From the NCBI GenBank assembly GCA_010015805.1, contig ML978123.1:1-64000 (forward strand): 64,000 nt of DNA, written 5' to 3'. Positions 2,081 to 47,369 of this stretch are shown here, piece after piece. Position numbers and translations under genes: made by a program. Position 1 is the first letter of the stretch; every line of letters begins with the position of its first letter. The notes under the pieces are model-generated. The model had not been told where the DNA came from. It saw only the letters and a list, made by a program, of their open reading frames with translations, and made no database searches. The DNA comes from Rhizodiscina lignyota. Taxonomy: Eukaryota.

Positions 2081-3357
2081 ACGTGACATTAAAGAGCATC
2101 ACCGTGCTCAACGGGAAGTGTCAATGGGAGAGATCTCACCGAATTGGCTGTCGATTATGGCGGTGAACTGGGAAGCAGGTATGAACAGCACATGATGAGG
2201 GACATAACGAAGGTCGGGCAGTATTCTATCCCAGAGTTGTTGATAAGGACTCTGCATAGTGTCTTAACACTCAATAAGACTTCAACCTTCGTTGGTAAAG
2301 CTTTTGAAAAGAAAAAATAGTGTTTACATGTTCCGTGACTGTACAAAACCAGAATGCTCCCTGAATGGGACCTCGCTAGCCATGGCAACAGAGTACCAGA
2401 ACACGTGAAAGCCCACATCTTAGTCTATTCCCTTGACAGTAGGAGAATTGATTCCTGGTGGCGGGCGAGTAATGGTCCAATGTGTCTGCAACAATCTGGA
2501 AAGCCCTCAGATGAGGTGAATGAGGTGAATCAGATTTGTCATGACCGTACCTGCACGTGCGGAGTACAGGGTTTCAAACCAACAATCGTACTTTAGCAAT
2601 ACCCAACCTCGTATCATCACTCTTCCGATTCTACCAACTTTCAGCTACATAGTCTACATGCGTGTTCGTGTGTGCTCCAGCTTATTGGCAACTCAATGTG
2701 ACTGTTTCTGCTGGAAAAAGACGCCAGTTTGCCAGTCATTAAAAACTTCTCCTGCGGAACGCGGTCTCTTCTCCCCCGACAGATGACATCCATGGACCAT
2801 AAGCTCGCGAAGAATACCTCACAGCCTAAGTCTCTCCCAATATCGCAATTCCTCCAAATGGGTGCCTTATATAAGTTTCAAGCAGTACCATAATCCTAAT
2901 GGAGGAAGAGTCTCGGGCTGACATCACAGCTCTCGGTGAGCGCCTGACATAATACGCTGACCCTTTCCACCATACAAGCGAGCAGGGCAAGTAGACTGAT
3001 TTGAATATATTTGCGTTTTGGATTCGTTATACGTCGACCGCTATTTCTCTTGTGGAGATTCTGGTTAAGTACTTGGATACACCACGCGCTATATCCTTTT
3101 CTTCTTCATACAGGCCTCGCCGGGCTGAAATAAGAATTCGAACCAAGGCTATTTAGAAGTAAATCGAAGGCACGTTCCGCGAAAACTTGACTCCAAGTGT
3201 TATGCAGGAATCGAAGTGGCATTGACCCAGCACCGCAGCTTACAGCAGTACCCTGATCAGTACTGTCTTCCCAGCACACCAGCATCGCATTGAAATACTA
3301 TACTAAATCATAAGTTTTCGGATTGCATCGCGTGGTCATCTTTCGCAAAAGCTCAAT

Positions 3358-4959
3358 ATGGCAAATTGGATATCCAACATTGACCTCTGGACTATCACAC
3401 CTCGTCTATGCCTAGCAGTGAGTGAAGTCCATGTCTACTTTATCTCCCGTATGCACGCTCTGATTCCGTCAGTTCCTCATATACATCGCCTCCACAGCAT
3501 TTTACAATGTGTTTCTCCACCCACTCCGCAATTTCCCAGGGCCGAGACTCTGGGCGGCATTCCGCTTACCACAAGTCCTCTGCCGCCTCATGGGAAAGCG
3601 TGCGTTCAAGATGCTCGAGTTGCACGAAAAGTACGGCGACATTGTACGCATCGGTCCCGACCAACTTAGCATTGTCAAGTCCGAGGCATGGAAGCAGATA
3701 TACTCGTACGACCACGGCAAGTACACGTTCAAAAAGCACCCCCGAATGTACTCTTCCTGGGAGGAGTCGCACAACATCGTCGACGCGGCGGGCAAGAACC
3801 ACGCGCGCGTGAGACGCGCACTGCTGCCTGCTTTCACTGACAAGTCGATCAAGGAGATGGAGCCGCTGATCCAGAAGAATGTTGACCACCTCATCGAGTA
3901 TCTCTCTAGTGCGCAAAGGTCCAAGGAGAAGCCGGAGATGTGCTCCGTATACGCATTCACGACGACGGACATCATCACAGACATCGCGTCCCTCCAACGC
4001 CCATACCTCCTCGACACCCTCGACCGCTCACAAGTCATCTTCGCCACATGGACCGAATATTGGCTGCTCCAGCTCGTATGCGCCTTCCGCTACTGGCCGA
4101 CCGCAGACTTCTTCTTTCGTCGTCTCGTACTCACACCCGTCTTGTTCTTCCTCATGAGCGGCAAAATGTCACTCGACAGTCTATCGAAGGAGCAGAGCGG
4201 GAAAGAGAGAACGGACCTCTGGAGCTTGGCCCAAAAAGACGAGAACGGAGACGTAAACTTGTCACCAGCGGAGATTCATGGCAATGGCGAGATCTTGACG
4301 ATCGCGGGGGCAGAAACCACATCGACGACCATTTCCGCGCTGACGTGGTATGCGCTGAAGGCGCCCGACAAGATGGCGAAGCTCACTGCGGAAATTCGCA
4401 CGGCGTTTGAGCGCCCGGAGGGTATCACACTTAACAGCGTCCAGTCCTTACCGTACCTCAACGCAGGCCTTCGGGAGGCGTTGCGCCTGCATCCGGCTGT
4501 GGCAGGGAACCTGCTCAGGATCACGCCCAAGAATGGCGCGACGGTGTGCGGGGAGACGCTGCCAGGAGGTATTGAGATATCCATGCCGCCGTACGCTATG
4601 GGGCATATTCCGTCGTATTGGCAGGATGTGGACAAGTTTATTCCGGAGCGCTGGATTGATCCGCTGAATTCGCCGTACGCGTCGGATAGGCGGGATGCGT
4701 CGCAGCCATTTTCTTTGGGACCGCAGAGCTGTATTGGCGAACGGTAAGTTTTAAGTTAACAACATGGGTGGAATGTACCGAGTGTGTGCTGACCAGATAT
4801 GGCAGACTGGCATGGCATCAAGCCCGCCTCATCCTCACGAAGATGTTCTGGCATTTCGACTTCGTACTCTGCGACGACAAGCAGAACTGGCCCAATCAGA
4901 ACGAGATGATAGGTTGGAGGAGGAACGCGCTGAATGTCGAGGTCCACAGAAGGCCTTGA
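3358..4959 (+). CDS. Cytochrome P450 monooxygenase (Tri11/CYP65-like appearance); exons 3358-3417, 3473-4743, 4806-4959
   Basis: N-terminal TM anchor plus HPLRNFPGP hinge, KYGDIVRIGP, I-helix AGAETT, EALR (ExxR), PERW and heme motif FSLGPQSCIG. Introns GTGAGT..CAG and GTAAGT..CAG keep the frame. Family assignment is by resemblance only. Confidence 0.95.
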
Positions 4960-5702: not shown

Positions 5703-8700
5703 CTATAACTGCCCGCTAATAACCGCCTCCGTCGCGCTGCCAATATACGCCTTCTTCGCATCAAGCGCAACGCCAAACCTCCTCTCCAGCTCCATCTTAA
5801 CGCTCTTCTTCGTCACAGTCATCAGATCCGCAGCGCGCAGAATATCTCTAATCTCCGCGAGGATGGCATCGTCGCTCGGCAGATTCATCATATCGTGCAT
5901 CTCGAGATTCTCGTTGCCATAGCCATGCATGTACTGGCTGTTCGCAAGGCTAAGCCTCGATCCCGAGTTAAAGCGTGGCATATCGAGCTGCGACATTGGG
6001 CGCGAGGGTGTGCCCATGCCTCCGCCGTATTCAGACGGGGAGCGACCACCGGGTGGGCCGTAACCTGCGAAAGAGCGAGTACCGTAGGAGATGCCCGAGA
6101 CTTCGGAGCGGTCGTCGCGCGCAGTCTGAGCCTCCCAAAGCTCGGCCTGGTATTCCTCCCACTTCTTCTTGGGGATGCTCTTGGGATCGAATTTGCCTTC
6201 ATCCGAAACAATGACTTTCTGGCCCTTTTCACCAGTCACAACACGAGTGTTGCCCCATGAGAAGTCGTCCATATGCCAGAAGGCGAACAGAGGCAAACCG
6301 CAGGAGAAGACGGGTGTAGCGAGGATGTAGATGATCATCCAGCCGATCATCTCCCATTTCCTGCGGAGGATGAAGATGATGGCTTGGAGACCGTAAATCG
6401 CACCGAGGAGAATGAAGGCAGTTATGGGGACGACGCTGCTGTCACGTACGAGCAGCACGATCAGGTAGGCGATGTAGCCAACGATGACAGGTTGCACGAC
6501 GGTGGACAGCAAGTCGAGGAACACGACGAAGCGCATGGAGAAGCAGCAGAAACCGCAAAGTTGCTGCAAGGGGATAAGCTCAATGAGGTTATGTACGGTC
6601 GAGTTGATCCATCTGCGGCGCTGGGACATGAACACCGCCCAGCTATCGGGAGCAATGGTCCAGGCGTGCGCGCGGAAGATGTATTTCGTCTTGTATTTGG
6701 AGTGGAACTTGAGCAGCAGTGTCGTGAGATAACGATCCTCGCCCAAGTGCAGCAGGTTCTTCATGTGCAGGGTATCAACGCGGATTTCTGAGTAGGCTTC
6801 GACGACTTCCTTGCTGACAAAGAGCGGCTTTCCGGTCTCGGCGGCGCGGATGCGGTACATAGAGAAACAACCGGGGAGACAGGTAATGGAACCAAAGAGC
6901 GATTCGAAGGCCTTGGTCAGGTTGTGCGAGATGTAGTATTCATAGACCTGCATCATCGTGATGAACGAGGCTTTTGCGTTGGTTAGAGCAGTTTCACCGC
7001 ACACGCCGACGATGCGAGTGTCGTGGAGGAAGGACGAGACCATGCGAGTAGCGGAGTCTGGAGCGACGACGGTATCGGCGTCAATCTGGAAGAGGAATTC
7101 GTAGAATGTCGGGTTGACGCCGATGATGTTTCGAATCTGGTGATGCATTTCGAGCTCGAGAGGCGTCATGGGCAGGTTGTAGTGGACACGATTGAGGAAG
7201 CGCATGAGTAGCATTTGCGAATCACGCTTGCCACGATTACCAGGCCTGCACAATAAAGTTAGCATCTGGGTGTGCTCATAGTATCAGAGAATAAATGGCT
7301 TACTTTGAGACCTCGCTCGGCTTGCCAACTTTGACGATCACCAAGAACGGGACGATGTGGCCTTGGACCTCGTACAAGCCACTGTAAACCTTACCCATGT
7401 TGTGCTGCTTCATACCCTCACCAAGGGACTCAAAGCTGAGCGGTTCTGGATCTACTGTCTCGCTCACACCAAGAATGTCCAACACGATGCGCGGCGTAGG
7501 CCTATCGTTGCCTTGGCCGATAATCATGCCGTCACAAATAACAACCAGGAGTTTCCTCTTGTCATCATACCTCATCCTCGAGAGAGAGTCAATGGCACGT
7601 CTCAGCGAATCTTCATCCTCAGTATACGCGGGCACAGTACACATGACGAACTTGTCGAGGTTCTCGGGTATGTTTCTCTTGCCAAACTGCAGCGCAGCCA
7701 AGAACTTGAATCCAATGACACTGACGAGCATAATGGAAATTGCGAGCAAGAGGTACTTGGCGAACTGACACTGCGTCGAGTTACGAGTGTCGACGTCACC
7801 GACGTAGAAGAGGTTGTCGAGACAGACCTGTTGTCGGGCCTTAACATCAGCGTTGAGGTTGAGGTCTTGCCAATACTTCGAAATGTCTTGACCGGCACGA
7901 CCAGAGAAGAGCTGCACGACGAGAGGGTCCATGAAATCAGAGTCGGGTGCCTGAGCTGGAGGTTTCTCGCCAGCTTTGTAGCGTGGCTGACGTCCACCAG
8001 GGACATAATCCGTCAAGTCGTACACGCGGCTATTGAGGATTGCAATGGCATTTTGCTTGCTCGCCAGAGTCTTGAGATACGTTGGCGAGAAACCAATGCG
8101 GCCCTTCATGTAGTTTGCCTTGAGGTAAATCTGCTGCTCCCACCACCAATCCGGACGCGAATCATTCGTGAACCAGCGGAAGTCGTGATACTTGGCGTTG
8201 TTATCTGTAGTGCTGATCAAGTTGCCCGAGTTGGTATAGTTGGAATTCTTGTAGTTCAGCTGCACAGCATCGTCGACGCTGCCAGTGACACCATTGCAGA
8301 GAGCAGAGACTTGGACCGGGAAGATGTTGGTTGCATCCGTGCCAGCATATTTCTTCAGAGCCGACTCCGGAACAATGTTCGGATAGTGGACGGGCATGAA
8401 GGCACCGAGGTCGTAGACAATACCACGCATGGCAACGTAAGAGTTGTGGCCGCTCTTGCCGTTGTGACTAGACAATTCCTGCTGCGAAAAGACGTGTTGA
8501 GTGGGGCAGATGAGTTCCGGCAGGCCGATCATGAAAAACAGCACGAACGCGCAGCTGAGCCAGATCAAGAAGTTGATGGCGACCTTTTCTCTCCAGGCAA
8601 CGCGGACGTCTTTACGGGTCATCTTGCCGACGTACCTGATCAGGAATTCGGGGATGAAGAAGGTCATCAGGTAAACGATAAAGACCCATCTCTTCCTGCT

Positions 8701-11453
8701 GCCGGAGATAGGGTGCTCATCAACGACATCCATCTTCGATTCCTGGGTCTTCTCGGCCATCTGCTCCTTGGTGTCGAGGCCACGGAACATGTCACCGCCG
8801 TTGAGAGCGCTTGCACCAGCCTCTGAGCGGAGGTCAATCTCTTTGCTACCGAAGTACTCGGCACCCTTGACGTCGTTGTTGTAGAACGATCCCGGGGTCG
8901 CAGTTTGAGAGTGGTCTATGAGGCGGAGTCGTGAGTCAGTTTTACCAGGCATTCCAGGTGACAGGAAGGCATCGTCGTTAACATCCTCGGACGATCCAGC
9001 ACCCATGTAGCGACTCTGAGCACCTGGCGCAGGGAGAGCGGGAAGGTTGGCGATGTCGAGCCAGACTCTCTCACTCAAGAAGACACCAGTAGTACCAACT
9101 CTGGCCTCATTGCCTGGCCATCTCCTCTCGTCCAGGATCATCTCGGCCTTCTCCTTCTCGCTACCGACGATGACTGTTTCACCCTCGGCAAGACCCAAGA
9201 ACTCGTTGAAAGGCAGAAAAACGCTAAAGTCAGCATTGCGCAGTCTTTGACTGATCTCCGCAATACCAAATGTCTGGACCTGTGTTCGCACGCACTTACT
9301 GTCGAACTGGTTGGCAATCTTTCGATCGTTCGGCTTCAGGCAGAAGACGAAGTAAGAGTTCATGTTGGCAGCATTCAGAGACTTGATGATGTTGGTCAAG
9401 CTGGAGAGGTACTGAGCGCTGACGCCCTGCTCAGAGCCAGGGGTTGTCTTGCCACCGCGACCCGGTTTGCTCTCGTCACTGATATTGCTAAGAGTGTCCT
9501 CATCCTGGCCGAAAAGTTTGCGTTTGGTACCTGACCGCTGTAATTGCTGGAACTTCTTGCGAGACATGCTCGGCATACGCATTGGTTTAGACGAGACGGA
9601 TGCTTGGACGATAGCACTCCTCTCCTGTGGGTGAGACACGGTGTTGAGCGCTTTCTGTCCGAAGAGATCGCGGATGAAGTCGCTGTGGGTTGTCCTGATG
9701 AGGTTCAAAAGGTCACCAGAGATGACTTCTGCGTTTTGCTCAAGGAGACCTTCCGTGGGGTAGTCAACTTCTCCAGCAAAGTGCTTGACCTTGAAGAATG
9801 CGGCAGCATTTGGCGTAGAGAAGTTGGTGCCTGGGGCAACGACGGTGGCAGGACTGACTTCAATGGCAGGGTTGCGGCCATCGAAACGCTTGCGGAGGGT
9901 CTCCACAAGTTGCATGTCAGTCTTACTACGACGCATCTGGTCATCGAGGATAGTCAAAAGTCCGTTACTTGGCTTGAGAAGACCCTTGACAGCATCAGAA
10001 TTATCGTAGTAGTTTGTGATGGGAATGGCCACATCCTCGGACTCGAGCAGATCAGCTGCATGCTGGAAGAAGCTGTCCAAGCAAAAGTTGTACAATCCCT
10101 CGTTCGCTGCGTTGTTGAGAAGTTGATCCAAGGTATAGCCAGTTGAGGATTGGGGAGCAAAACCTGGGAAGTCGACAATTGAGACTGTGTTTTGGACCGA
10201 GTCTTCTGGTGCACAGATCTTCTGGTTAATCGTCTCCGTAACGTAAGCCACGAGCAGCGTATACAGAGTCCTTGCAAGCTCGTCGGCATTTTCACGCGCA
10301 CCGCGAGGATCCAGCATCACTGTTACTCGTTCCCGATGAATGGTTCGCGACTTGTTTCCAAGACTCCTCTCGAGATCGGCGGGTGTCAGGCCCAGGAAAG
10401 CAGCCACAGCTTCTAGCTCTTCCTTGTTCTTAACCACAGTAACATCTTGACCACCTTCATGAGAGTACCCGCCACTGTCGTCTGCTTGTGGCGTGGTCGA
10501 CTTCTCAGTGGTAAAGTCCAATTGACCAAGATGGAGGATTGCTGCAAGAACTTGGCAAATTTCTGCAATGTCTGTCCGTGGAAATTCAAGCTTCCTCAGA
10601 GCAGTCTTGAAGTCTTGGAATTGCTGTGCGTCGTTGATACCAATCTTCATTTGCGTCGGGTGGCCAAGGTACCTCCATCGCTTTCCACCCATTGACGTTC
10701 TGTTTCCAGCATCCATGGTGATGGCACCAGGATTATTCAGAGCCAAGTGGGCCTTCTCGGCCACACTTGTGCCCGCCAGAAGGTAGTAGAATATGTGAAA
10801 GTTGCGTTCTCCGGTCGGTACGGAGGCAACTCGACTGCGTTCAAGCCTGTGGTCGAGTAGCTTTCCACCGACCAAAGTCGGAGCCATGGATGTTGCTGTG
10901 TCATATTGAAGCTCGAAGAACAAACCAGCCTTGGAAGCGGTAAGGGTGGTCGCGCTCTTGGTCGTGGTCAAAGAGTCGAAAACGAAGGAGGCATACGAGA
11001 GCTTTTGGGAAAGTGGAGTGGAAGAGTACGTGAGGATGTTCGACAATGCGTGGGAGCGGAGTGTGGTCTTTCCAGAGCCAGATTCACCACTGGAAGCCTA
11101 TTGTTAGTAAAACTATTCCAAACAAGGCAGGGAGCTTGAGATTGCACCCCAAAAAGGACTTACAGGAACAGTATGGCTTGATTCTCAGCACGATGGCCGA
11201 GTCTTGCCCACACTCGAGATGCCAACTCTCGTGTGGCACCGTATCCACTCTCGTCTGGCTCGCCATTTGCACTCTTGGTGGAGCTCGAGTAGTTGTTTAT
11301 CGCGATGATAGCCTGAGACGAGAGGCGGGAAATGGGGAGATGCGCATGGAACCGGCTCGCGAGATGTGCGGTGAGGTGAGTATCGGACTGGAGATGTGCA
11401 GGAAGCGAAGGTAGCGACGCCTGAGCGTGCTGCGGCGGGCCGCTGAGTGACAT
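5703..11453 (-). CDS. csmA: Class V chitin synthase with N-terminal myosin motor domain; exons 11453-11164, 11089-7304, 7245-5703
   Basis: Splicing creates P-loop GESGSGKT. Also [10 protein letters not shown], switch-[15 protein letters not shown], cytochrome-b5-like segment ([11 protein letters not shown]), GT2 motifs (IDADT, LGEDRYL, QRRRW) and a C-terminal DEK_C-like domain ([13 protein letters not shown]). Introns 11163-11090 and 7303-7246 are GT-AG and frame-consistent. Confidence 0.97.
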
Positions 11454-13228: not shown

Positions 13229-16200
13229 ATGGATTTCAACTTCAACAACCGCACCTCGACCTTTTCGGCCGCGTCGGTCACCTCATCCAGACGTGCTGGT
13301 GCATCATCACAGCAGGTGTCCACACAAACTCTTCTAAACGCGCTTCATACTTGCTACCAGAATGGTCAGGCTTTTTCATTAGAGCCAAGTACCAGCCTGG
13401 CTGTAAATACATGGGTCACAGCAAGCAAAGTTGGGCCTGATGGTAGATATGGAGGCACTGTGGACGTCGATGTGGCCAGAAAGGCGTGGGAGCATGCCAG
13501 AAGGAGAGCAGAAGATGGCTGCGTCGTCCTTGGGTAAGCTTCGAAAATTGCAGGAAGCTACATCGAACTTTCACTGACAGAACTTCAGATCTCTCCACGA
13601 CTCGACGCCGTCCATGTTCGCTCCTTTCGTGTCTGCTCTCCCAATCAACGTCCCACCGTCCTTCTATACCTCGCTTGATGTCCTCAAGGCATTCACACAC
13701 TGCGTTACTCCACACAACCCCTCGTTTGCTAGACATTCCGCTCTTTCTGCCACCTTTGAGATGAACTTGACTGGAGTAATCACCGGAGCATCTCTTGCTT
13801 TGTCAACTGCTGGACTCGACACGCATAATGGTTTACTTCATGTGCCCGACATGCCGGGCTACAGAGCATTCAATGTTTTCTATTACCTCAACTCCAGCTC
13901 TGCGTCACAAGCTGAGAGGGATTTTCTCGACCTAAAGCCTCCATCATCTTACACTCTCCTCAAGCGCTCTGGCACTTTCCAACCGCCGTCATACCTCCCA
14001 ACTGAGGATGATGCGGCATCCGGCGAAGAATGGAGGTCCAATCTCCGACGAATTGGCATCAAAGGTGCTGATCAGCGAAATCTCATCTCCGTTCTGGCTG
14101 GTCTCCTCAAGCTGGGAGAGACGCTCAGCTACCTGGTAGACGAAGAAGTGCTGAACTCCGTTTGCGACGATGCAGCTCAGCTTCTCGATCTTGATGTCAA
14201 CGTTCTCCGCCGCAAGTGCGACACCATCGAACGCGAGGTCCTCATTGCCGGTATCTACGAAGCGGTGGTCGATTTCGCCATTGCTCGTGCCAACGAGACC
14301 ATTCGCAAGGAGGTCAAGGGCATCAAGATGGCCCTTTCGTCCGCCGGAAGCGATACAGGTTCTCGAGTTGCCACTCCTCACTCCTCCCACGAGGACGAGA
14401 ATGAAGACAAGGTCAGCATCACGGTCGTCGAAATCCCGAATCAAGAGGTTGGAAAGGCCATTGCCCTCCGCAATGTCTTCGACGACACTGAGGGCATCAA
14501 CGCTGAAATGAAAGAGGATGGTGTACAAGTCGGGGCCGCAGGATCTTCAGTGATCAAGGAGATGAAGACTGCTGTTGCGGAAGCTGCTGCTGATCTTGGC
14601 ATCTCTGACAGTCATCTCAGCCGCGAACGTGAACAGGAGCGAGACCGCAGACAGGCTGTCCTTGAAAAGGTGGCTGCCCACGCCGACAATGATACTTACC
14701 TGAAGGAGATTCTCTGCCCAGAAGAGCTTGGTGTCACAGTGGGCAAGACGGGTCGTTTCAATCTCGCTCATATCATCGCCAGCAGTCGTGTGTGGTTCCA
14801 GCTGGGTCTCCATCCTACCGACGAGGCACCCGCTACCCTTGCGAACACGCTATCCGGCACTTCGGGCTGGTCTGCAGGTGCAGTCTCCCGCCAACTCAGA
14901 GCGTGGCGCCTGCCAGAATGGGCGAACCGCCGCAACAAGAGCTTGGACTTCACTGCAGACTTCGACTATGACGAGTTTGTCACCCGCTACAGCCGTTTGG
15001 GCTGCACCGAAGGCCGTGACGGCGTAGAGAACTGGGTCATGGAGCGTGGCTGGAGCAACGGAGAGGTTGCTCTGGGCAAGGAGCGTGTGTGGATCAGAGA
15101 GGCTGCATGGTGGGAAGCGGAAAACATGCTTGATATGAAGCCCATGGAGGATCATTTCACTCCGGGCAGCGGCGTCGAGACACCAGCCATGGACCCTGCT
15201 TACGGTGGTGCGAGTGTCAACGCCAGCGGCTTTTTTGGCAACCAACCTTTCAACGACGCGGCAACCCTCCAGGGAAGCAAGGACAACCTCTTGCAGAGAC
15301 ACTACAGCTCCGCGACTCTAGGGATGCAAAGTCAGATGGGCGCTAGATCACTTGCTCCAACTCAGGCCGCTCCCACCGCAAGGAATGTCAGTGTCGGTGA
15401 TTACGGCCTCGGAAACAAAGGCGACGACAGGAAGGGCGAGGTGACATATTACGGTGAGCTAGACCCGGAGCTTGGCGATCCAAAGTTCGTCACCGAACAA
15501 CCTACTAGTAATGGCCGACGCATCTGGGTCGCCGTTGTTTGGACACTCACTTTCTGGATTCCTTCACCACTTCTCAGATACGTTGGTCGCATGAAGAGAC
15601 CCGATGTCCGCATGGCCTGGCGAGAGAAGCTGGTGCTCATCTTCTTCATCTTCATTATGAACGCCATCATCATCTTCTACATCATTGAGTTCGGCCGTCT
15701 ACTTTGCCCGAATTTTGACAAGGCATGGAACGCGAAGGAAGTGAGCACCCATCAAGGAAACAACGACTTTTGGGTCAGTCATCATGGTAAAGTGTACGAC
15801 GTCTCAAAGTTCTGGAAACTCCAGCACAGTGATCTCGACAACATCGACACTACTCAGGACGTTATGCAACCGTTTGCTGGAACGAATCTGGACGACTATA
15901 TCACGCCACCACTTACGCTTGCATGTCCCGCATTGATTCCTGCTAACGCCATCAATAACCAACTGGAGCTGACGTCGAATGACACGATCACGAATCCTAG
16001 TGCCTTGCATACGTCCGGACCAACACTTCAGCAGGTTCCAACCACCAAGTTGCACCAACTTGACTGGTATTCCAAGGTCTTCCTGCCACGTATGGCAGAA
16101 TACCACAAAGGCGATTTGGTCGTGACGACCGGCACGATCAAGTCAGAGGGACAAAACAACAACCACATGTGGGCCATCATTGACAACAGCATCTACGACC

Positions 16201-18758
16201 TCACAGACTACTTCCACACCCAGACGGTGCAGAAGAACAACCCGAACTACCACTTCTTCCCAGAGGATGTCGAGAATCTCTTCAAAAACAACCCGGGTGA
16301 AGATATCACAAACCAGTGGATTCAAAACCTCAACGCGACGACAAAGGCAGCCTCGATGCAGTGCTTGCAAGATATGTTTTACAAAGGCAAGACTGATTTC
16401 AGAGACACGCCTCGTTGCAAGGTCAACAACTATATCCTGCTCGCATTCACCATCATCCTCTGTACCGTTATCGGCGTGAAGTTCTTGGCTGCTCTTCAGC
16501 TCGGTTCCAAGCGCCGCCCAGCTCAGCAGGATAAATTCGTCATCTGCCAGGTCCCCGCCTACACGGAAGGTGAAGACTCACTCCGTAAAGGCCTCGACTC
16601 TCTTACCGCACTTGCGTATGACAACAAGCGCAAGCTCATCTGCGTCATCTGCGACGGCATGATTGTTGGCGGCGGCAATGACCGACCAACTCCCAAGATC
16701 GTCCTTGATATCCTCGGTGTGGACCCAAAGATTGACCCGCCGGCATTGCCGTTCCGTTCTGTCGGTACTGGCAGTGAGCAGCTCAACTATGGCAAGGTCT
16801 ACTCTGGCCTCTACGAGTATGAGGGCAATGTCGTGCCTTACGTCGTCGTTGTCAAGGTTGGCAAGGAGTCTGAGCAGCACAAAGCGAAGCCTGGCAACCG
16901 CGGCAAACGTGACAGTCAGATCATGATCATGTCCTTCTTGAACCGTGTGCACCACCGCTCTCCGATGAGTCCGCTAGAGCTGGAGATGTTCCACCAGATC
17001 AACAACGTCATTGGTGTTGACCCTGAGCTGTACGAGTACTTGCTCATGGTCGACGCCGATACTTCAGTTAAGGAGGACTCTCTGAACAGGCTTGTGGCGA
17101 GCTGCGCGAATGACGCGAGGATTGCCGGTATCTGTGGTGAGACGAGCTTGGAGAATGAAGAGAGGAGTTGGTGGACCATGATCCAAGTCTACGAGTACTA
17201 CATCTCCCATCACTTGTCCAAGGCTTTCGAAAGTTTGTTCGGAAGCGTTACTTGTTTGCCTGGTTGGTGAGTATCTCCTTCGCCGCTCAATATCAGACCT
17301 ATTATGCTTTACTAACACAGTTATGGCAGTTTCTGCATGTACCGACTGCGAACCGCGGACAAGGGCAAGCCGCTCATCATTTCCGACAAGGTCATCTCAG
17401 AGTACAGCGATTGCAATGTCGACACGCTCCACAAGAAGAACCTGCTCTCGCTCGGAGAGGATCGTTACCTGACAACGCTGATGACCAAGCACTTCCCGCA
17501 AATGTCCTACAAGTTCATTTCTGACGCCTACGCACTCACTGCCGCACCTGAGACATGGTCTGTCCTGCTTTCTCAGCGTCGTCGCTGGATCAACAGTACA
17601 ATCCACAACCTGGTCGAACTCGTCTTCCTGAAAGACCTGTGCGGTTTCTGTTGTTTCAGTATGCGCTTCGTTGTCTTCATCGATCTCTTCGGCACAATCA
17701 TCCTACCTGCTACTTGCACGTATCTCGGCTATCTCATCTACACCGCGGCAAGTCATTCTGGTCAATTCCCGATCATCTCGATTGTCATTCTAGCAGCTGT
17801 GTACGGCTTGCAGGCGATCATTTTCTTGATCAAGCGGCAATGGCAGCACATCGGTTGGATGATTATCTACATCCTCGCCTTCCCAATTTACTCTTTCGTG
17901 CTACCAATCTACTCCTTCTGGAAGCAGGATGACTTCTCCTGGGGTAACACTCGCGTCGTTATCGGCGAGAAGGGGAACAAGCAAGTCGTCATGGAGACCG
18001 AGGAGGGCTTCGATCCGCGCTCCATCCCGCTCCAGCGCTGGGACGATTACGCCCTCGCAAACAACTTGCCCGGCCGCCGCGGCCTCGGCGCCGCCGTCGA
18101 GAAGGGCACCCCCTTCGAGGACGGCGAGTTCGAGATGGATGAGATGCAAAGCCAGTATTCGTCTGTACGCCCCGCGTCGACCGTCTTGACTGGGTTCGGA
18201 GGGCACCATTCTCAGTACATGCCGCCGCAAGGTGGGATGCAGAGCCCAGGCCCACACCAGGGTCTCATGCATCGACAGAGCACGTACTCGAACTTCTCAG
18301 CGTACAAGGATAGTCCGAACCCAGATCAGCAGCGCATGATGAGCATGGGCGGCATGAGCGACCACATGGCCGGCCACGCCTCCCCGCGCGCCTCCCACTC
18401 CCAGTCCGCAATGATGAACCCCATGAGCCAGGAGAACCTGCACGCCTCGCCGTATGGCCGGTCGTCGCCGAACCTCTTGGGTCGCCAGTCCCCGCAGAAC
18501 CAAGGCCGTGCGAGAAGCCCCTTGGGTATGGGACCGAGTAGACCCGTGAGCACCGTCAATTTCCAAAATATGGTACACGGGCCGACCGACGAGGCAATTG
18601 TGCAGGCGATTCGCGAGTGTCTTGGGGAGGTGGACTTGGACGCGGTGACGAAGAAGCAGCTCAAGGCGCTGGCGGAGCAGAGGCTGCAGACGCAGCTTGT
18701 GGGTGAGCGGAAAGCGTTTTTGGATGAGAGGATTGATTTCGAGTTGGCGAATATGTGA
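13229..18758 (+). CDS. csmB: Class VII chitin synthase with degenerate myosin-like domain; exons 13229-13533, 13589-17266, 17330-18758
   Basis: [18 protein letters not shown]-terminus and AFNVFYYL, no P-loop. Cyt-b5-like ([12 protein letters not shown]), VDADT, LGEDRYL, QRRRW and DEK_C-like end ([10 protein letters not shown]). Introns 13534-13588 and 17267-17329 are GT-AG and in frame. Confidence 0.97.
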
Positions 18759-35230: not shown

Positions 35231-36466
35231 ATGTTATCGCGCAAAGCATTTCGTTCATTGTCCTCTCAATCACCATCGAAAAAGCTATTCTCCACCAGCA
35301 GCAAGCTCCATGCTGACTTCACGCATGCCGTCGTGGGCGGCGGTGCTGTCGGTCTCGCCATAGCCCGCCAGCTCCAATCAAGAGAGGGCGCCTCCGTCGT
35401 CCTAATCGAGCGCCATGGCATGGTAGGCTACGAGACATCCTCACGCAATTCCGAAGTCATCCATGCAGGAATCTACTACGGGCTCTCATCCCTTAAAGCT
35501 CGTCTATGCATTCGAGGCAAAAACTTGCTTTATGAACTTTGCGAAAAGAACGCCATCCCCTACCGCAATTGTGGAAAGTGGATCGTTGCACAGGATGGCG
35601 AGCAGTATAAAGAGCTAGAGAAACTTCATGAGTTTACCCAGCAGATTGCTGTCCCGACGCGCTGGGTCAGTCAGGAAGAGGCGAAGAGACGAGAGCCAGA
35701 CGTCAGAGCTGCGGGAGGGATTCTGGAAAGCCCGACGACTGGGATTGTGGACAGTCATAGCTACATGCAGTTTCTGCATGGCGATTTCGAGGATAAGGGA
35801 GGGGTATGCGCATTGCAGTCGCCGGTATCTCGCGTTGTGCCTATCGAAAATGGGCGTGGAGGTTGGGAGATCTTCACGAATGTGGACGGGGAAGAGACTT
35901 CCATCAGCTCAGAAACATTCATCAACTCCGCCGGATTGGCAGCCATACCGCTCTCGAATTCGATAATGTCACCTGAGCGACAAAGGAAACCATACTATGC
36001 GAAAGGCACGTACTTCTCGTACAGTGCATCAAAGCCCTCGCCAAAGACACTCATCTACCCCGCGCCGAAACCGTCGTTAGGAGGACTAGGAACACATCTC
36101 ACACTTGATATGGGTGGTCGCATACGATTCGGCCCGGACGTCGAGTGGATTGAGTCTCCGGACGACTACAGTGTGAACGACGCACGAATGCCGGAAGCAC
36201 TGGACGAGATTGCCGAGTATCTACCCACGTATGATAGGAGCGCCGTAGGGTTGGACTACGCAGGCATTCGGCCCAAGTTGGGAAAGGGAGGTGCTGTATG
36301 GAAAGGGGATGGAAAGGAATTTCTCGACTTTTACATCACAAAGGAAGAAGGATTCGAGGGATGGATCAACCTGCTGGGAATTGAGAGTCCAGGACTAACG
36401 AGCAGTCTGGCTATTGGAGAAGAGGTGGAGAGATTGCTGTATGGAAGTAGTGGGAAGGTGATATGA
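35231..36466 (+). CDS. L2HGDH: L-2-hydroxyglutarate dehydrogenase, mitochondrial (FAD-dependent oxidoreductase)
   Basis: Arg/Ser/Lys-rich presequence, VVGGGAVG FAD motif, ETSSRNSEVIHAG, LGTHLTLD, FGPD, DYAGIRPK and IESPGLTSSLAI. Confidence 0.93.
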   Translation: MLSRKAFRSLSSQSPSKKLFSTSSKLHADFTHAVVGGGAVGLAIARQLQSREGASVVLIERHGMVGYETSSRNSEVIHAGIYYGLSSLKARLCIRGKNLLYELCEKNAIPYRNCGKWIVAQDGEQYKELEKLHEFTQQIAVPTRWVSQEEAKRREPDVRAAGGILESPTTGIVDSHSYMQFLHGDFEDKGGVCALQSPVSRVVPIENGRGGWEIFTNVDGEETSISSETFINSAGLAAIPLSNSIMSPERQRKPYYAKGTYFSYSASKPSPKTLIYPAPKPSLGGLGTHLTLDMGGRIRFGPDVEWIESPDDYSVNDARMPEALDEIAEYLPTYDRSAVGLDYAGIRPKLGKGGAVWKGDGKEFLDFYITKEEGFEGWINLLGIESPGLTSSLAIGEEVERLLYGSSGKVI

Positions 36467-45344: not shown

Positions 45345-46577
45345 TTTGGGCGATTGTGTCTCGGATGCGATGAGTCTGTGTCGTCTTGCTGAACGTCTTG
45401 CTTTCTTGGTGGATTAGCTGTATATTGCGCCCTTCATTCTGAATATATAGAGCATCGGGTGCGGGTCGGTTAACATGATGCCGTGGATGCCTTTGAAGTT
45501 GATAATGCAACAAAGAGTTCACTAATCATTCGGCGAGGCAGTTGAGTATAGACACTGCATCACAAGACTGCCAATTCTGCTTGTCTCTGATGATTTCTCT
45601 TCGCACATACAGAATTTTCATGATGAAATGTATTCCGAGACATTTGCGGAGGATCGTGGGCATGGAACGTTAGACATGATTGGCCAGATATCGCCGTTGT
45701 CCACCATCGCTCCGAAGTCCGACTTCATCCCATGTCGACCGACGATGACGCTCTTTTAAAATGCTACGTACGAAGCATTCCTGTGAGATTTTAGAGCCTT
45801 GAGCTATCAAATGACCGAGGCGCAATCTGGTGACAATATCTGAAGTCTCATCTGTGATCACGGCTCTCTCAATGCGCATGAAGCACATCGGATGCTCTTG
45901 AAAAGATCTCGCCTCGGTATCTGTACCCGAAGGTTAACTTATGGCGACGGAGAACTTTACACGAATGAGAATTTAGGCACAGAAACCGAGGGAAGACCCG
46001 GGCTCTTACGATTATGCATGAAGCCGTTACTCGACGCGCCTTCCAGCGACGGGCGCAAGGCGGACGCGGTCCAATAATCTTTCTCAAGATGGAAACCTCA
46101 GAGTGCGCGATCAGCAATTTAACCTTAGAGACTTTACTCACCTTTGTAATCTTGACGTTTTTCATTTACGAAAGATACCAAACGCATGATCATCTGTTGT
46201 GATCGTGTGTAGTGGAAGCGCTTCTGGCTGCATTGGGCGGACGCAGATAGAATTCGAACGCAACGCAAAAGAAAGAGAGGAAAACAGAATTTCACTGTCC
46301 TATTCGAGTCATGACCTACCAGGGGTTACCAGCAGAAAGATAAGGCGGCCCGACATGGCGACGCGCCAGGTGTAGTAGTGGTGGGACGTATGGGACTGGG
46401 CGTTAACTTGTCGCAGGTGGCATAATCGACGCGCATAATAATAATAAATTCAGTCAGTCTGGCTTTGTGTGAGGTAGGCACATACGTCATTCCCGTGTGT
46501 TATGCGAGGGAGCTATAGGTAATTTGCCATATTTGACTTTATATACAAATTCTAATTAGCAGCTAACGGATCGAAAA

Positions 46578-46714
46578 GGCAGTATGGCTCAAGGGGTTAG
46601 CCCCGACTTCACCTGAGCTGTACTTGCTCCTCCTGCACACCTCCAACCAACCGGCTGGGGCTGTCAGGTCTGGGGAATAGGTTCGACTCCCGCGGGGATA
46701 GGACCTATTCTTTT
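46578..46714 (+). ncRNA. Candidate Pol III-transcribed structured RNA / tRNA-derived element (not a canonical tRNA)
   Basis: A-box TGGCTCAAGGG starts at +8 (46585); B-box GGTTCGACTCC 46680-46690; T-tracts 46711-46714 and 46718-46722; TATATA at 46540. 5' and 3' hairpins, but no acceptor or T stem. Confidence 0.6.
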
Positions 46715-47369
46715 GTCTTTTTATTTTATATATTTTTTCTCTCTTTTTTTCTCCTATTTACAAATTATTTAAATTTTTTTTTCAGATGCCCGCTGGCGTT
46801 CTAGGACCTGCCACTATGGCATAGCGGAAGCAAGAACGAGAGCTCTAAAAGATGCACTTTGGTCCCTTCACTACACTACTAACCCTTTATGATTGATCGG
46901 GCCAATCAAATACTAAATATCAAAATATCAGGCAATGCTGGTTCAACTGCACCTGCCTCGTCGTCCTGAAAAGAGTTAGCACTGAGGTGGTGTAGACTTT
47001 GCGCCTATTTTCTTTGCTGCAAGAGGTTTGATTCCGGTAAGCATTATTCTTTTTCTCTTTGCATAAATAAATGAGACTATGGGTTCACAAAGATACCCAA
47101 ATGCCCGCAAACGTTTGCGAGTAGGTTTGAAATTGATTATATAGGTAAGACAGGGGTACATTCGCTGGCTTCTGACCACTTTTGCATTCTAAAGTCGACC
47201 TCTCTCGCAATTTTCAACAACAGCTAACGAAACTCTATCACCCGCATCCCCTGTCCATGGTTTCGCGCTAGCTTCTGACTATTTCTGCCTTTCGAGCTTC
47301 TAATCTCTATAGCTTCTAACCAACAACAACAACACTTGCCTCTACTCTCCAAGAGCGACGACCAGCATC

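Follow-up and report, generated by a model that had tools for sequence, protein, structure and literature searches.

A dispersed, possibly SINE-like repeat carrying tRNA-type Pol III promoter motifs in a fungal genome

Promoter motifs and predicted fold of the element

The window, meaning the whole 64-kb stretch of DNA analyzed here, contains a GC-rich island at 46578-46712 (GC 0.59) within AT-rich DNA (GC 0.28-0.33 upstream and 0.18 downstream). An earlier note on this DNA had described the island as a candidate gene for a structured, non-cloverleaf RNA driven by a tRNA-type promoter, and its account of the motifs is borne out: by direct reading, TATATA starts at 46540 within TTTATATACAAA (46538-46549), a GG lies at 46578, and the A box TGGCTCAAGGGG (46585-46596) begins at +8 from the G at 46578. 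The consensus B box GGTTCGACTCC likewise lies where it had been placed and is closely followed by oligo-T runs, namely T4 at 46711-46714, T5 at 46718-46722, and T4 at 46724-46727. All motifs that make up a type-2 Pol III gene, i.e., A box, B box, and T runs, are therefore present at the element (Table 1).

The A-box consensus is TRGCNNAGTGG, and the A box of Pol III genes is typically located ~10-20 nt downstream of the start. Judged at the level of motifs against these general consensus sequences for the A and B boxes, the element would be assigned to the type-2 Pol III class. The exact B box occurs once on the two strands of the 64 kb, with 0.14 occurrences expected from shuffles, and a composite pattern (A box, 25-110 nt, exact B box, and T4 within 40 nt) occurs once in the window and in none of 300 dinucleotide shuffles; relaxing the composite gives a mean of 0.04 per shuffle. 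The Pol III signature at the element is beyond chance. An upstream TATA box at -30/-24, as described for the tRNA genes of S. pombe and plants in the account of PMC7279448, provides the position rule applied to the TATA-like box in Table 1. The element shares with these tRNA genes the order of TATA, A box, B box, and T-run terminator, although it lacks a cloverleaf, an anticodon arm, and acceptor and T stems, and neither ARAGORN nor Rfam gives a tRNA match. Furthermore, its A and B boxes are spaced by 83 nt, whereas 30-40 bp is given for type-2 promoters in the same account (PMC7279448).

Table 1. Features of the element, in window coordinates
Feature	Position	Strand	Basis and remarks
TATA-like box TTTATATAC	46538..46546	+	Direct reading; ~-32/-24 from the predicted start near 46570
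Repeated unit	46553..46740	+	Summed word depth profile of contigs
Pol III start zone, predicted	46565..46575	+	TATA at -30/-24 rule; A box 10-20 nt after start
Hairpin 1	46578..46628	+	14-bp outer stem with one bulge, weaker inner stem; A box in 5′ strand
A box-like motif TGGCTCAAGGG	46585..46595	+	Motif reading and composite scan
Middle domain, C/A-rich, with weak hairpin 2	46629..46673	+	z -1.81; variable part of the family
Hairpin 3	46674..46711	+	11-bp stem and inner 4-bp stem; B box in 5′ strand
B box GGTTCGACTCC	46680..46690	+	Exactly equal to consensus GGTTCGANTCC; best-conserved, highest-depth part of the family
Pol III terminator-like T4, T5, T4 runs	46711..46727	+	Motif printout

The minimum free energy (MFE) of the whole element is -60.2 kcal/mol (z -3.38), a value equaled by 0 of 200 shuffles. 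The two helices pointed out earlier, a 14-bp bulged helix at 46578 and a hairpin around the B box, are both real by MFE and shuffle z-scores. Hairpin 1 (46578-46629) reaches -21.7 kcal/mol (z -2.88) on the + strand and -18.1 (z -1.64) on the - strand; its outer stem includes three G-U pairs, and its stems contain no variant among the sites listed from the aligned contigs. Hairpin 3 (46672-46712), also recovered as inverted repeat I1 in the repeat search, reaches -20.0 kcal/mol (z -3.71) on the + strand and -14.8 (z -3.04) on the - strand, and its sole stem variant, 46704 C>T, converts a G-C into a G-U pair and keeps the pair. G-U pairs make up 9 of the 51 pairs in the + strand MFE; together with the better folding of both hairpins on the + than on the - strand, they favor the + strand as the orientation of the predicted structure. 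A putative pseudoknot between 46598-46605 and 46656-46663 can be drawn as eight pairs, two of them G-U; the CCCC at 46601-46604 in one of its arms also pairs with three other GGGG runs, of which the MFE takes the local one. The middle domain of one variant copy (record 3) still forms a hairpin (-14.6 vs. -17.2). A pair change in this copy, 46645 A>G with 46656 T>C, was set aside as covariation, being too little and referring to a structure derived from the same sequence.

The element is not a cloverleaf tRNA and belongs to no Rfam family. Direct reading confirms the absence of an acceptor stem (GGCAGTA vs. GGGGATA) and of a T stem (ATAGG vs. CCCGC), both of which are unpaired. ARAGORN yielded 0 tRNA genes in the 64-kb window, and 0 genes in four of five intron-tolerant or loose settings; the tRNA-Trp reported in the fifth, only at an 80% score threshold, was treated as spurious, since it would require an intron of 118 nt together with a 5′ exon located in the AT-rich flank (46489). 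Intron-containing, multi-intron, and permuted tRNA layouts were ruled out by eye and with ARAGORN. An Rfam scan of the window at the gathering score matched 0 of 4227 families and gave no tRNA-clan match, and at E ≤ 10 on 46400-46900 it returned four sub-threshold chance matches, none of them to tRNA, 5S, U6, SRP, or RNase P. Since the Rfam tRNA model is silent even at E ≤ 10, the putative tRNA origin is drawn from the two box motifs.

A dispersed family with conserved ends and a variable middle

Contigs of X1, the single DNA run found to contain this sequence, were aligned on 46400-46900, and 34 contig pieces were found on these 501 bases, with identities of at least 99% (14 pieces), 95-99% (7), 90-95% (10), and below 90% (3). 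Up to 46535 the summed word depth stays at 146.6; it then increases to 265 at 46536-46552 and 1287 at 46553-46569, peaks at 3136 in the 5′ end (46570-46586) and at 4560 in the B-box hairpin (46672-46688), and falls to 500 at 46723-46739, 181 at 46740-46756, and 146 beyond. Relative to the flanks, the depth is 21x at 46570-46586, 6.5-11x in between, and 27-31x at 46672-46705, although summed contig depth is not equal to copy number, and unrelated sequences with 80% likeness along a short stretch may account for some of the 27-31x over the B-box part. The contigs that represent the window itself break off at 46585 and 46686. Three others (records 5, 6, and 7, with lengths of 76 kb, 751 nt, and 37 kb, respectively), all at a single-copy depth of 150-156, have an end or a start within copies that show 4-7 letter differences. 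In addition, collapsed unitigs of short length are present at 2-4.5x single-copy depth; the one at 4.5x (record 2) starts exactly at 46570 with one difference, and record 4 has no difference at 3.4x depth.

Because the depth rises and other single-copy contigs end in diverged copies, the element belongs to a dispersed family, which comprises ~20-30 members whose ends are conserved and whose middle varies; full-length-alike copies amount to roughly 6-11 of these. The copy-number check that the earlier note had called for thus identified a multi-copy element, on the evidence of the 34 pieces, the depth of 21-31x over the flanks, and the long single-copy contigs that end in copies; the element is short, interspersed, and multi-copy, as SINEs are. 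The flanks are single-copy directly outside ~190 bp, in the window and in the three other contigs, and therefore the element is not part of a larger repeat. Of the 13 variant sites that were listed, 10 (9 of 11 substitutions, plus the two indels) are located in the middle domain (46629-46673), and 46674-46699 is invariant among the aligned copies; this distribution fits constraint on a promoter plus hairpins. Within the 64-kb window, blastn-short gave no second copy and no match longer than 16 nt. The segment 46909-47060 looked promising as a co-linear diverged copy (score 27.5, matched by 2 of 300 shuffles) and was dropped after 3166 real 200-nt segments of the window scored up to 35.5, which placed 27.5 outside the top 12.

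No single sharp 5′ boundary is apparent: identity with other copies begins at 46556, 46561, and 46570, the last of these near the predicted start. Downstream, two other copies have a loose end that opens with T5 and T6 runs. The repeat search and inspection by eye of the flanks of the window copy revealed no convincing target-site duplication (TSD). The best candidate, direct repeat D2 (12 of 14 positions), is AT-rich and at chance level for such flanks, and a match found by eye between 46540-46553 and 46754-46767 (12 of 14) compares with ~1.5 such matches expected by chance, as a rough estimate. Both sides of the unit carry the sequence TTTATATA (46538-46545 and 46725-46732; repeats D2 and I3), and neither the repeat search nor inspection of the ends by eye gave terminal inverted repeats beyond the self-complementary TATATA (I3). 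The tail of the window copy is T-rich, with no A-rich or LINE-like 3′ tail seen. An imperfect 24-nt period is present at 46704-46759 in this T-rich tail.

Outside the window, an exact 23-mer of the B-box hairpin had 0 matches in metagenome, viral, and prokaryote genome contigs, and the A-box...N{65,95}...B-box pattern had 0 matches in metagenome contigs, both scans being limited to exact matches in collections with few fungi. The open minus-strand frame through the element gave no candidate among 5.8 billion proteins. Against 1.84 billion representative proteins it gave five matches (E 8e-7 to 8e-4), which were rejected as copies of the element and taken as compositional (444-946 aa, with 3-8 short matched stretches). 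At the protein level, relatives with 79-85% identity exist. A full-text literature search for a 16-mer of the element returned 0 papers.

Interpretation of the repeat and its alternatives

The earlier note had primarily proposed a single undescribed ncRNA gene, a proposal not supported by the 34 pieces and the 21-31x depth; the high copy number shifts the reading to a tRNA-derived, SINE-type element. Of this second option, which the note had also raised, the high copy number is seen, whereas the TSDs expected with it have no convincing candidate. We consider, at about even confidence, that 46553-46740 of the window is a tRNA-promoter-type, SINE-like Pol III repeat. Each copy of the ~140-190 bp unit in this host, a Dothideomycete-like ascomycete, would then be a complete type-2 Pol III unit, presumably borrowed from a tRNA gene, with the cloverleaf lost. 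As we infer from the motifs, TFIIIC would bind the A and B boxes and TFIIIB the TATA-like box near -30, Pol III would start near 46570 and stop in the T runs at 46711-46722, and the product would be an RNA of ~140-155 nt in which the hairpins 46578-46628 and 46674-46711 stand around a variable C-rich middle. Most likely, the unit would have spread as a selfish SINE-like element, its tRNA-derived Pol III transcript being copied back into the genome. The absence of a convincing TSD, the lack of an apparent sharp 5′ boundary common to the copies, and the T-rich tail count against the SINE-like reading.

Among known fungal elements, AfuSINE2 of Aspergillus fumigatus provides the closest description: in the account of PMC5063351, its copies are of 140-493 bp, low in number, equipped with A and B boxes and oligo-T, none folding into a cloverleaf, and were defined with TSDs of 4-14 bp and degenerate boxes. 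Mg-SINE and Foxy are also cited in that account, in which no more than a handful of earlier SINE families from fungi are named. The present element resembles AfuSINE2 in being short and of low-to-moderate copy number, with internal A and B boxes, a 5′ part without a cloverleaf, and an intergenic position in gene-rich DNA; an oligo-T tract lies downstream of the 3′ tRNA-unrelated region of AfuSINE2, and T runs end the element here. By contrast, the present B box is perfect, is located 83 nt after the A box, and lies inside the 3′ hairpin; the TATA-like region upstream is common to at least three copies; and there is no convincing TSD. These likenesses to fungal SINEs are drawn from the published descriptions. 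To our knowledge, no SINE-type family is known for this Dothideomycete lineage, and at the level of titles the literature on Dothideomycete SINEs names no such family.

Homology extending upstream to the TATA-like box fits a DNA-level duplication or a gene family better, because a retroposed Pol III transcript should be without its upstream promoter. The main alternative, tentative and on balance unlikely, is a family of genes in many copies that would encode a structured, so far undescribed Pol III RNA of ~140 nt, maybe a domesticated SINE-type RNA like 4.5SH/4.5SI of rodents, each locus having its own TATA-like box, A and B boxes, and terminator. The TATA-like 12-mer or a close variant is present at the same distance (±1 nt) in all three visible upstream flanks (the window included, with nine further loose ends outside the comparison); the two other flanks are alignable by eye back to this box, and one of them shares TTTATATACAAA at 12 of 12 positions. 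Over 46553-46569, which precedes the predicted start, approximately 9 of ~21 copies retain an alignment of ≥80%, and T runs directly follow, both here and in the consensus sequence downstream of two other copies. Several copies show little or no difference (e.g., records 4 and 2), and both hairpins are invariant apart from the pair-keeping change at 46704, with a variable middle. According to the account of PMC7279448, mammalian 4.5SH/4.5SI genes are marked by a conserved TATA-like box at -31/-24 that matters for transcription, whereas SINE copies are without such specific 5′ elements. The likeness to these genes comprises a small non-tRNA RNA, A and B boxes, a TATA-like box at ~-31/-24 common to the copies, and a relation to SINEs (PMC7279448), although the genes are mammalian, have no sequence relation to the element, and are of studied expression and function, whereas transcription here is predicted. 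Against a gene family stand the empty exact-match scans of fungus-poor collections and the empty search of 5.8 billion proteins, and the mosaic make-up (ends at 21-31x vs. a middle at 6.5-11x, with divergent sub-types), which is more typical of decaying repeats; moreover, AT-rich insertion sites alone could supply TATA-like motifs. Somewhat more doubtful still is the full form of this reading, in which ~20-30 dispersed loci, each with TATA, A and B boxes, and terminator, would encode a Pol III RNA of ~140 nt with three hairpins, abundant, representing a class new for fungi, and a counterpart of the SINE-derived functional RNAs 4.5SH, 4.5SI, and BC1.

A repeat spread at the DNA level and not transcribed by Pol III, i.e., a MITE, another non-autonomous DNA element, or a transposon fragment that captured part of a tRNA gene, with the boxes as relics, appears improbable. 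Conserved termini with a variable middle are also a MITE pattern, TTTATATA flanks the unit on both sides, and the upstream homology reaches past any plausible transcription start; however, the unit lacks the terminal inverted repeats of a MITE beyond TATATA, the single-copy flanks outside ~190 bp leave no larger repeat, TATA at -30, A box, perfect B box, and T runs stand in the right order and orientation (0 of 300 shuffles), and the G-U pairs favor one strand. The earlier suggestion of a microRNA-like precursor fares worse, with stems of only 10-14 bp. In Neurospora, as described in PMC3547838, Pol III transcribes the major milRNAs, and milR-4 is cut by RNase Z from a tRNA-containing transcript, the tRNA-miRNA units of MHV68 being similar. 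Like both, the element would be a Pol III unit whose hairpin RNA is driven by promoter elements of the tRNA type, and hairpin 1 is similar to a stacked helix of the acceptor/T-arm kind, a possible substrate of RNase P or RNase Z; in the known units, however, a true tRNA or tRNA-like cloverleaf lies upstream of the hairpins, whereas here the boxes lie inside short-stem hairpins. The stems of 14 bp (bulged) and 11 bp are short for Dicer, compared with hairpins of ~20 bp or more, and a repeat present in many copies would be more likely to yield siRNA-like reads than one defined milRNA, which makes such a precursor highly improbable. The least credible reading, and one largely refuted, is a unique decayed tRNA gene, an extra-TFIIIC site, or a functional tRNA hidden by a long, non-canonical, or permuted layout. 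The A and B boxes are present and, by reading, two G-to-A reversions would restore the T stem, but the element is multi-copy and its broken stems are the family consensus, as the invariance of 46674-46699 indicates. The complement of 46578-46584 is found only at 46621-46628 and not near the 3′ end, no upstream acceptor complement for a permuted layout is visible by eye, ARAGORN with introns gives 0 credible genes, and the Rfam tRNA model is absent at E ≤ 10.

Meaning for fungal genomes

SINE-type elements are poorly catalogued in fungi. Repeat-induced point mutation (RIP), a fungal defense that mutates duplicated DNA, acts above a size limit, and a short repeat below RIP size with a perfect TFIIIC site could spread binding sites for Pol III and TFIIIC through the genome. 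The repeat also breaks assemblies, contigs stopping at its copies, and can mislead programs that search for ncRNA genes. Should each copy really retain its promoter and yield a stable RNA, the family would represent a new abundant fungal Pol III RNA and, if true, this would additionally be a case of a SINE-to-gene or gene-to-SINE transition.

Promoter motifs and predicted fold of the element

The element (forward strand) sits in intergenic DNA with single-copy flanks, and the GC content of 46578-46712 is 0.59 vs. 0.28–0.33 upstream and 0.18 downstream. The island, TATA-like motif, initial GG, A box at +8, B box, and T runs described in the earlier note were all found where it had placed them. 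With A-box and B-box consensus sequences that are our assumption, the exact B box occurs once in the 64-kb window (0.14 expected from shuffles), and one-mismatch B-box-like sites are at chance level (5 observed vs. 4.2 expected in the window). The composite pattern (A box, 25–110 nt, exact B box, T4 at most 40 nt away) has a single occurrence in the window, and none of 300 dinucleotide shuffles contains it; it is this joint pattern that rises above chance. A unitig of 4.5-times depth in X1, the DNA run used for copy counting, starts exactly at 46570. If transcription began near 46570, with the TATA at 46538-46546, the A box would lie at approximately +16 and the terminator at approximately +142 to +153, a geometry that is self-consistent for this putative start. 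The T-rich tail (46704-46759) shows an imperfect periodicity of 24 nt (2.3 copies, 72% matches; CCTATT at 46704 and 46752) and could be the simple-repeat tail of the element or mere low-complexity DNA.

Features of the element and window, with summed word depth in X1 and its ratio to the flanks; summed depth is not copy number, and part of that over the B-box region may stem from short look-alikes
Feature	Position	Strand	Basis or value
TATA-like motif TTTATATAC	46538-46546	+	direct sequence reading
GG	46578	+	direct sequence reading
A box-like TGGCTCAAGGG	starts 46585 (+8 from GG at 46578)	+	direct sequence reading
B box GGTTCGACTCC	46680-46690	+	direct sequence reading
T4, T5, T4 runs	within 46711-46727	+	motif listing
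Hairpin 1	46578-46629	+	-21.7 kcal/mol, z -2.88
Hairpin 1	46578-46629	-	-18.1 kcal/mol, z -1.64
Hairpin 3	46672-46712	+	-20.0 kcal/mol, z -3.71
Hairpin 3	46672-46712	-	-14.8 kcal/mol, z -3.04
Summed depth	flanks		146 (1x)
Summed depth	46553-46569		1287 (~9x)
Summed depth	46570-46586		3136 (~21x)
Summed depth	46604-46654		950-1640 (6.5-11x)
Summed depth	46672-46688		4560 (~31x)
Summed depth	46689-46705		3952 (~27x)
Summed depth	46723-46739		500 (~3.4x)
Summed depth	from 46757		146 (1x)
Chitin synthase gene, myosin motor domain	5703-10887	-	
Chitin synthase gene, myosin motor domain	13614-18758	+	
FAD-dependent oxidoreductase gene	35231-36466	+	

The absence of a cloverleaf and of a recognized RNA class, proposed from the first reading, agrees with the database searches. 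ARAGORN detected no tRNA in the window and, once introns were allowed, only a single candidate, judged spurious, with the score threshold at 80%; Rfam gave no match at gathering score across the whole window, and its four local matches at E ≤ 10 were at chance level (15–19 bits vs. cut-offs of 50–95), with tRNA, 5S, U6, SRP, and RNase P absent among them. By direct reading, no complement of the 5′ end lies near the 3′ end, the sole complement of 46578-46584 is 46621-46628, and neither a canonical nor an intron-split or permuted cloverleaf could be constructed. The 135-nt stretch has a minimum free energy (MFE) of -60.2 kcal/mol (z -3.38), equal stability being reached in 0 of 200 shuffles; G-U pairs account for 9 of the 51 MFE pairs, and the middle domain (46629-46673) folds weakly (z -1.81). 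The element is thus predicted to be structured, with the forward strand favored by the fold. The pseudoknot suggested previously (46598-46605 with 46656-46663) can be drawn; it is without support because CCCC at 46601-46604 could pair with any of four GGGG runs.

Copies and their variation

Copies were counted in X1, the contigs (34 million letters) of one public run containing the stretch, in which 0.94 of its sampled words were found; X1 is possibly the sample behind the window's assembly, which is immaterial for counting copies within the genome. With a likeness cut-off of 80%, 34 pieces aligned to 46400-46900: 14 with an identity of ≥99%, 7 with 95–99%, 10 with 90–95%, and 3 with less than 90%. 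The window's own contigs break off at 46585 and resume at 46686, and three others (76,037, 37,144, and 751 nt) of single-copy depth (150–156) end or begin inside copies differing from the window copy by 4–7 letters. Short collapsed unitigs (72–80 nt) have 2–4.5 times single-copy depth. The element is read as a member of a dispersed family of roughly 20–30 members, about 6–11 of which resemble one another along their full length, with several nearly identical to the window copy.

No second copy was found within the 64-kb window. An apparent decayed copy at 46909-47060 failed the empirical control against real window segments, and the same kind of alignment test gave no significant similarity between the downstream region and the element. 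At 46802-46826, TAGGACCT, the same string as at 46699-46706, precedes GCCACTATGGCATAGCGG, a sequence similar to the 5′ end of the element that includes an A-box-like TGGCATAGCGG; a B-box-like site with one mismatch and a T run behind it occupies 47025-47053.

Among the X1 copies, 13 variant sites are listed (11 substitutions and two indels), 10 of them in the middle domain, and none in the A-box (46570-46611) or B-box (46674-46699) region. The others are 46612, in the loop of hairpin 1; 46700, an unpaired position of hairpin 3; and 46704 C>T, which converts G-C to G-U among the MFE pairs of the hairpin 3 stem. In one contig both partners of an MFE pair are changed (46645 A>G and 46656 T>C), another pair is broken, and three bases are inserted; the middle domain of this contig nonetheless forms a hairpin (-14.6 vs. 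-17.2). Selection on the two hairpins and the promoter boxes could account for this variation; a sample this small, and this dependent on one sequence, does not qualify as covariation. In a divergent sub-type (a copy with a loose end before 46634), the 3′ strand of hairpin 1 differs; its perfect partner would be a 5′ end closer to that of a tRNA than the one in the window copy.

The flank comparison rests on six of 15 loose ends, two of which are upstream flanks; their copies begin to align with the window at 46556 and 46561. One flank carries TTTATATACAAA, identical to 46538-46549 and ending 7 nt before the junction vs. 6 nt in the window; the other carries TATTTATAC and then an AAATTC..AATT string, aligned by eye with 46540-46557 at an offset of 1 nt. 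A TATA-like box hence lies at the same distance in all three visible upstream flanks (window and two others). The alignment still holds in 46553-46569 for about nine of about 21 copies, and for two other copies the consensus on the downstream side goes directly into T5 and T6 runs.

Elsewhere in the window, the two divergent chitin synthase genes each encode Myosin_head, Cyt-b5, Chitin_synth_2, and DEK_C domains and each extend across two ORFs, an intron being the presumed cause; filamentous fungi typically have such head-to-head pairs. The oxidoreductase resembles L-2-hydroxyglutarate dehydrogenase; Dothideomycetes supply its best named relatives (≤69% identity), which places the host in that class of ascomycetes, and relatives in Logan contigs reach 79–85%.

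Nature of the family

The earlier note's Pol III motif anatomy and non-tRNA character stand, and the reading as a single non-coding RNA (ncRNA) gene gives way to a family of approximately 20–30 members. The note's SINE check is answered in part: copy number is high (34 pieces, summed depth up to ~31x flanks), and candidate target-site duplications are at chance level. We give roughly even chances to a tRNA-promoter SINE-like Pol III repeat, of which the window would hold one short interspersed copy; the family is multi-copy, dispersed, and short, with A and B boxes without a cloverleaf, a T-rich end, and mosaic sub-types. Fungal tRNA-related SINEs, according to PMC5063351, are 140–493 bp and of low copy number, with A and B boxes, an oligo-T tract, and no cloverleaf fold in any, and the element is likewise short, with A/B boxes, a T-rich end, and no cloverleaf. 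The exact 23-mer of the B-box hairpin had 0 matches in metagenome, viral, and prokaryote genome contigs (collections with few fungi), the exact A-box...B-box pattern had 0 in metagenome contigs (few fungi), and a literature full-text search for the element's sequence returned no mention. The open minus-strand frame through the element gave no candidate among 5.8 billion proteins, and its five hits among 1.84 billion representatives (E 8e-7 to 8e-4) are taken as matches of composition.

The copy number refutes a one-off locus, whether decayed tRNA or extra-TFIIIC (ETC) site; a hidden or decayed tRNA is scarcely credible, and a milRNA precursor is very improbable. A non-Pol III DNA repeat is unlikely, and a MITE-type DNA element is less likely given that the element has no terminal inverted repeats and that its Pol III signature is improbable by chance. 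Simple retroposition is opposed by the lack of a convincing target-site duplication at the element, by 5′ boundaries staggered at 46556, 46561, and 46570, and by an upstream promoter region common to at least three copies; these observations favor, over simple retroposition, a multi-copy family of functional ncRNA genes, or of genes derived from a SINE, that duplicates together with its promoter, a minority reading. According to PMC7279448, tRNA genes of S. pombe and plants have an upstream TATA box at -30/-24, and TATA-like boxes at -31/-24 matter in rodent 4.5SH and 4.5SI genes, unlike SINE copies, which are without specific 5′ elements. Beside the SINE-like reading stands a real but minority chance that R. 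lignyota carries a multigene family whose members bear their promoters and encode a new small RNA of fungi.
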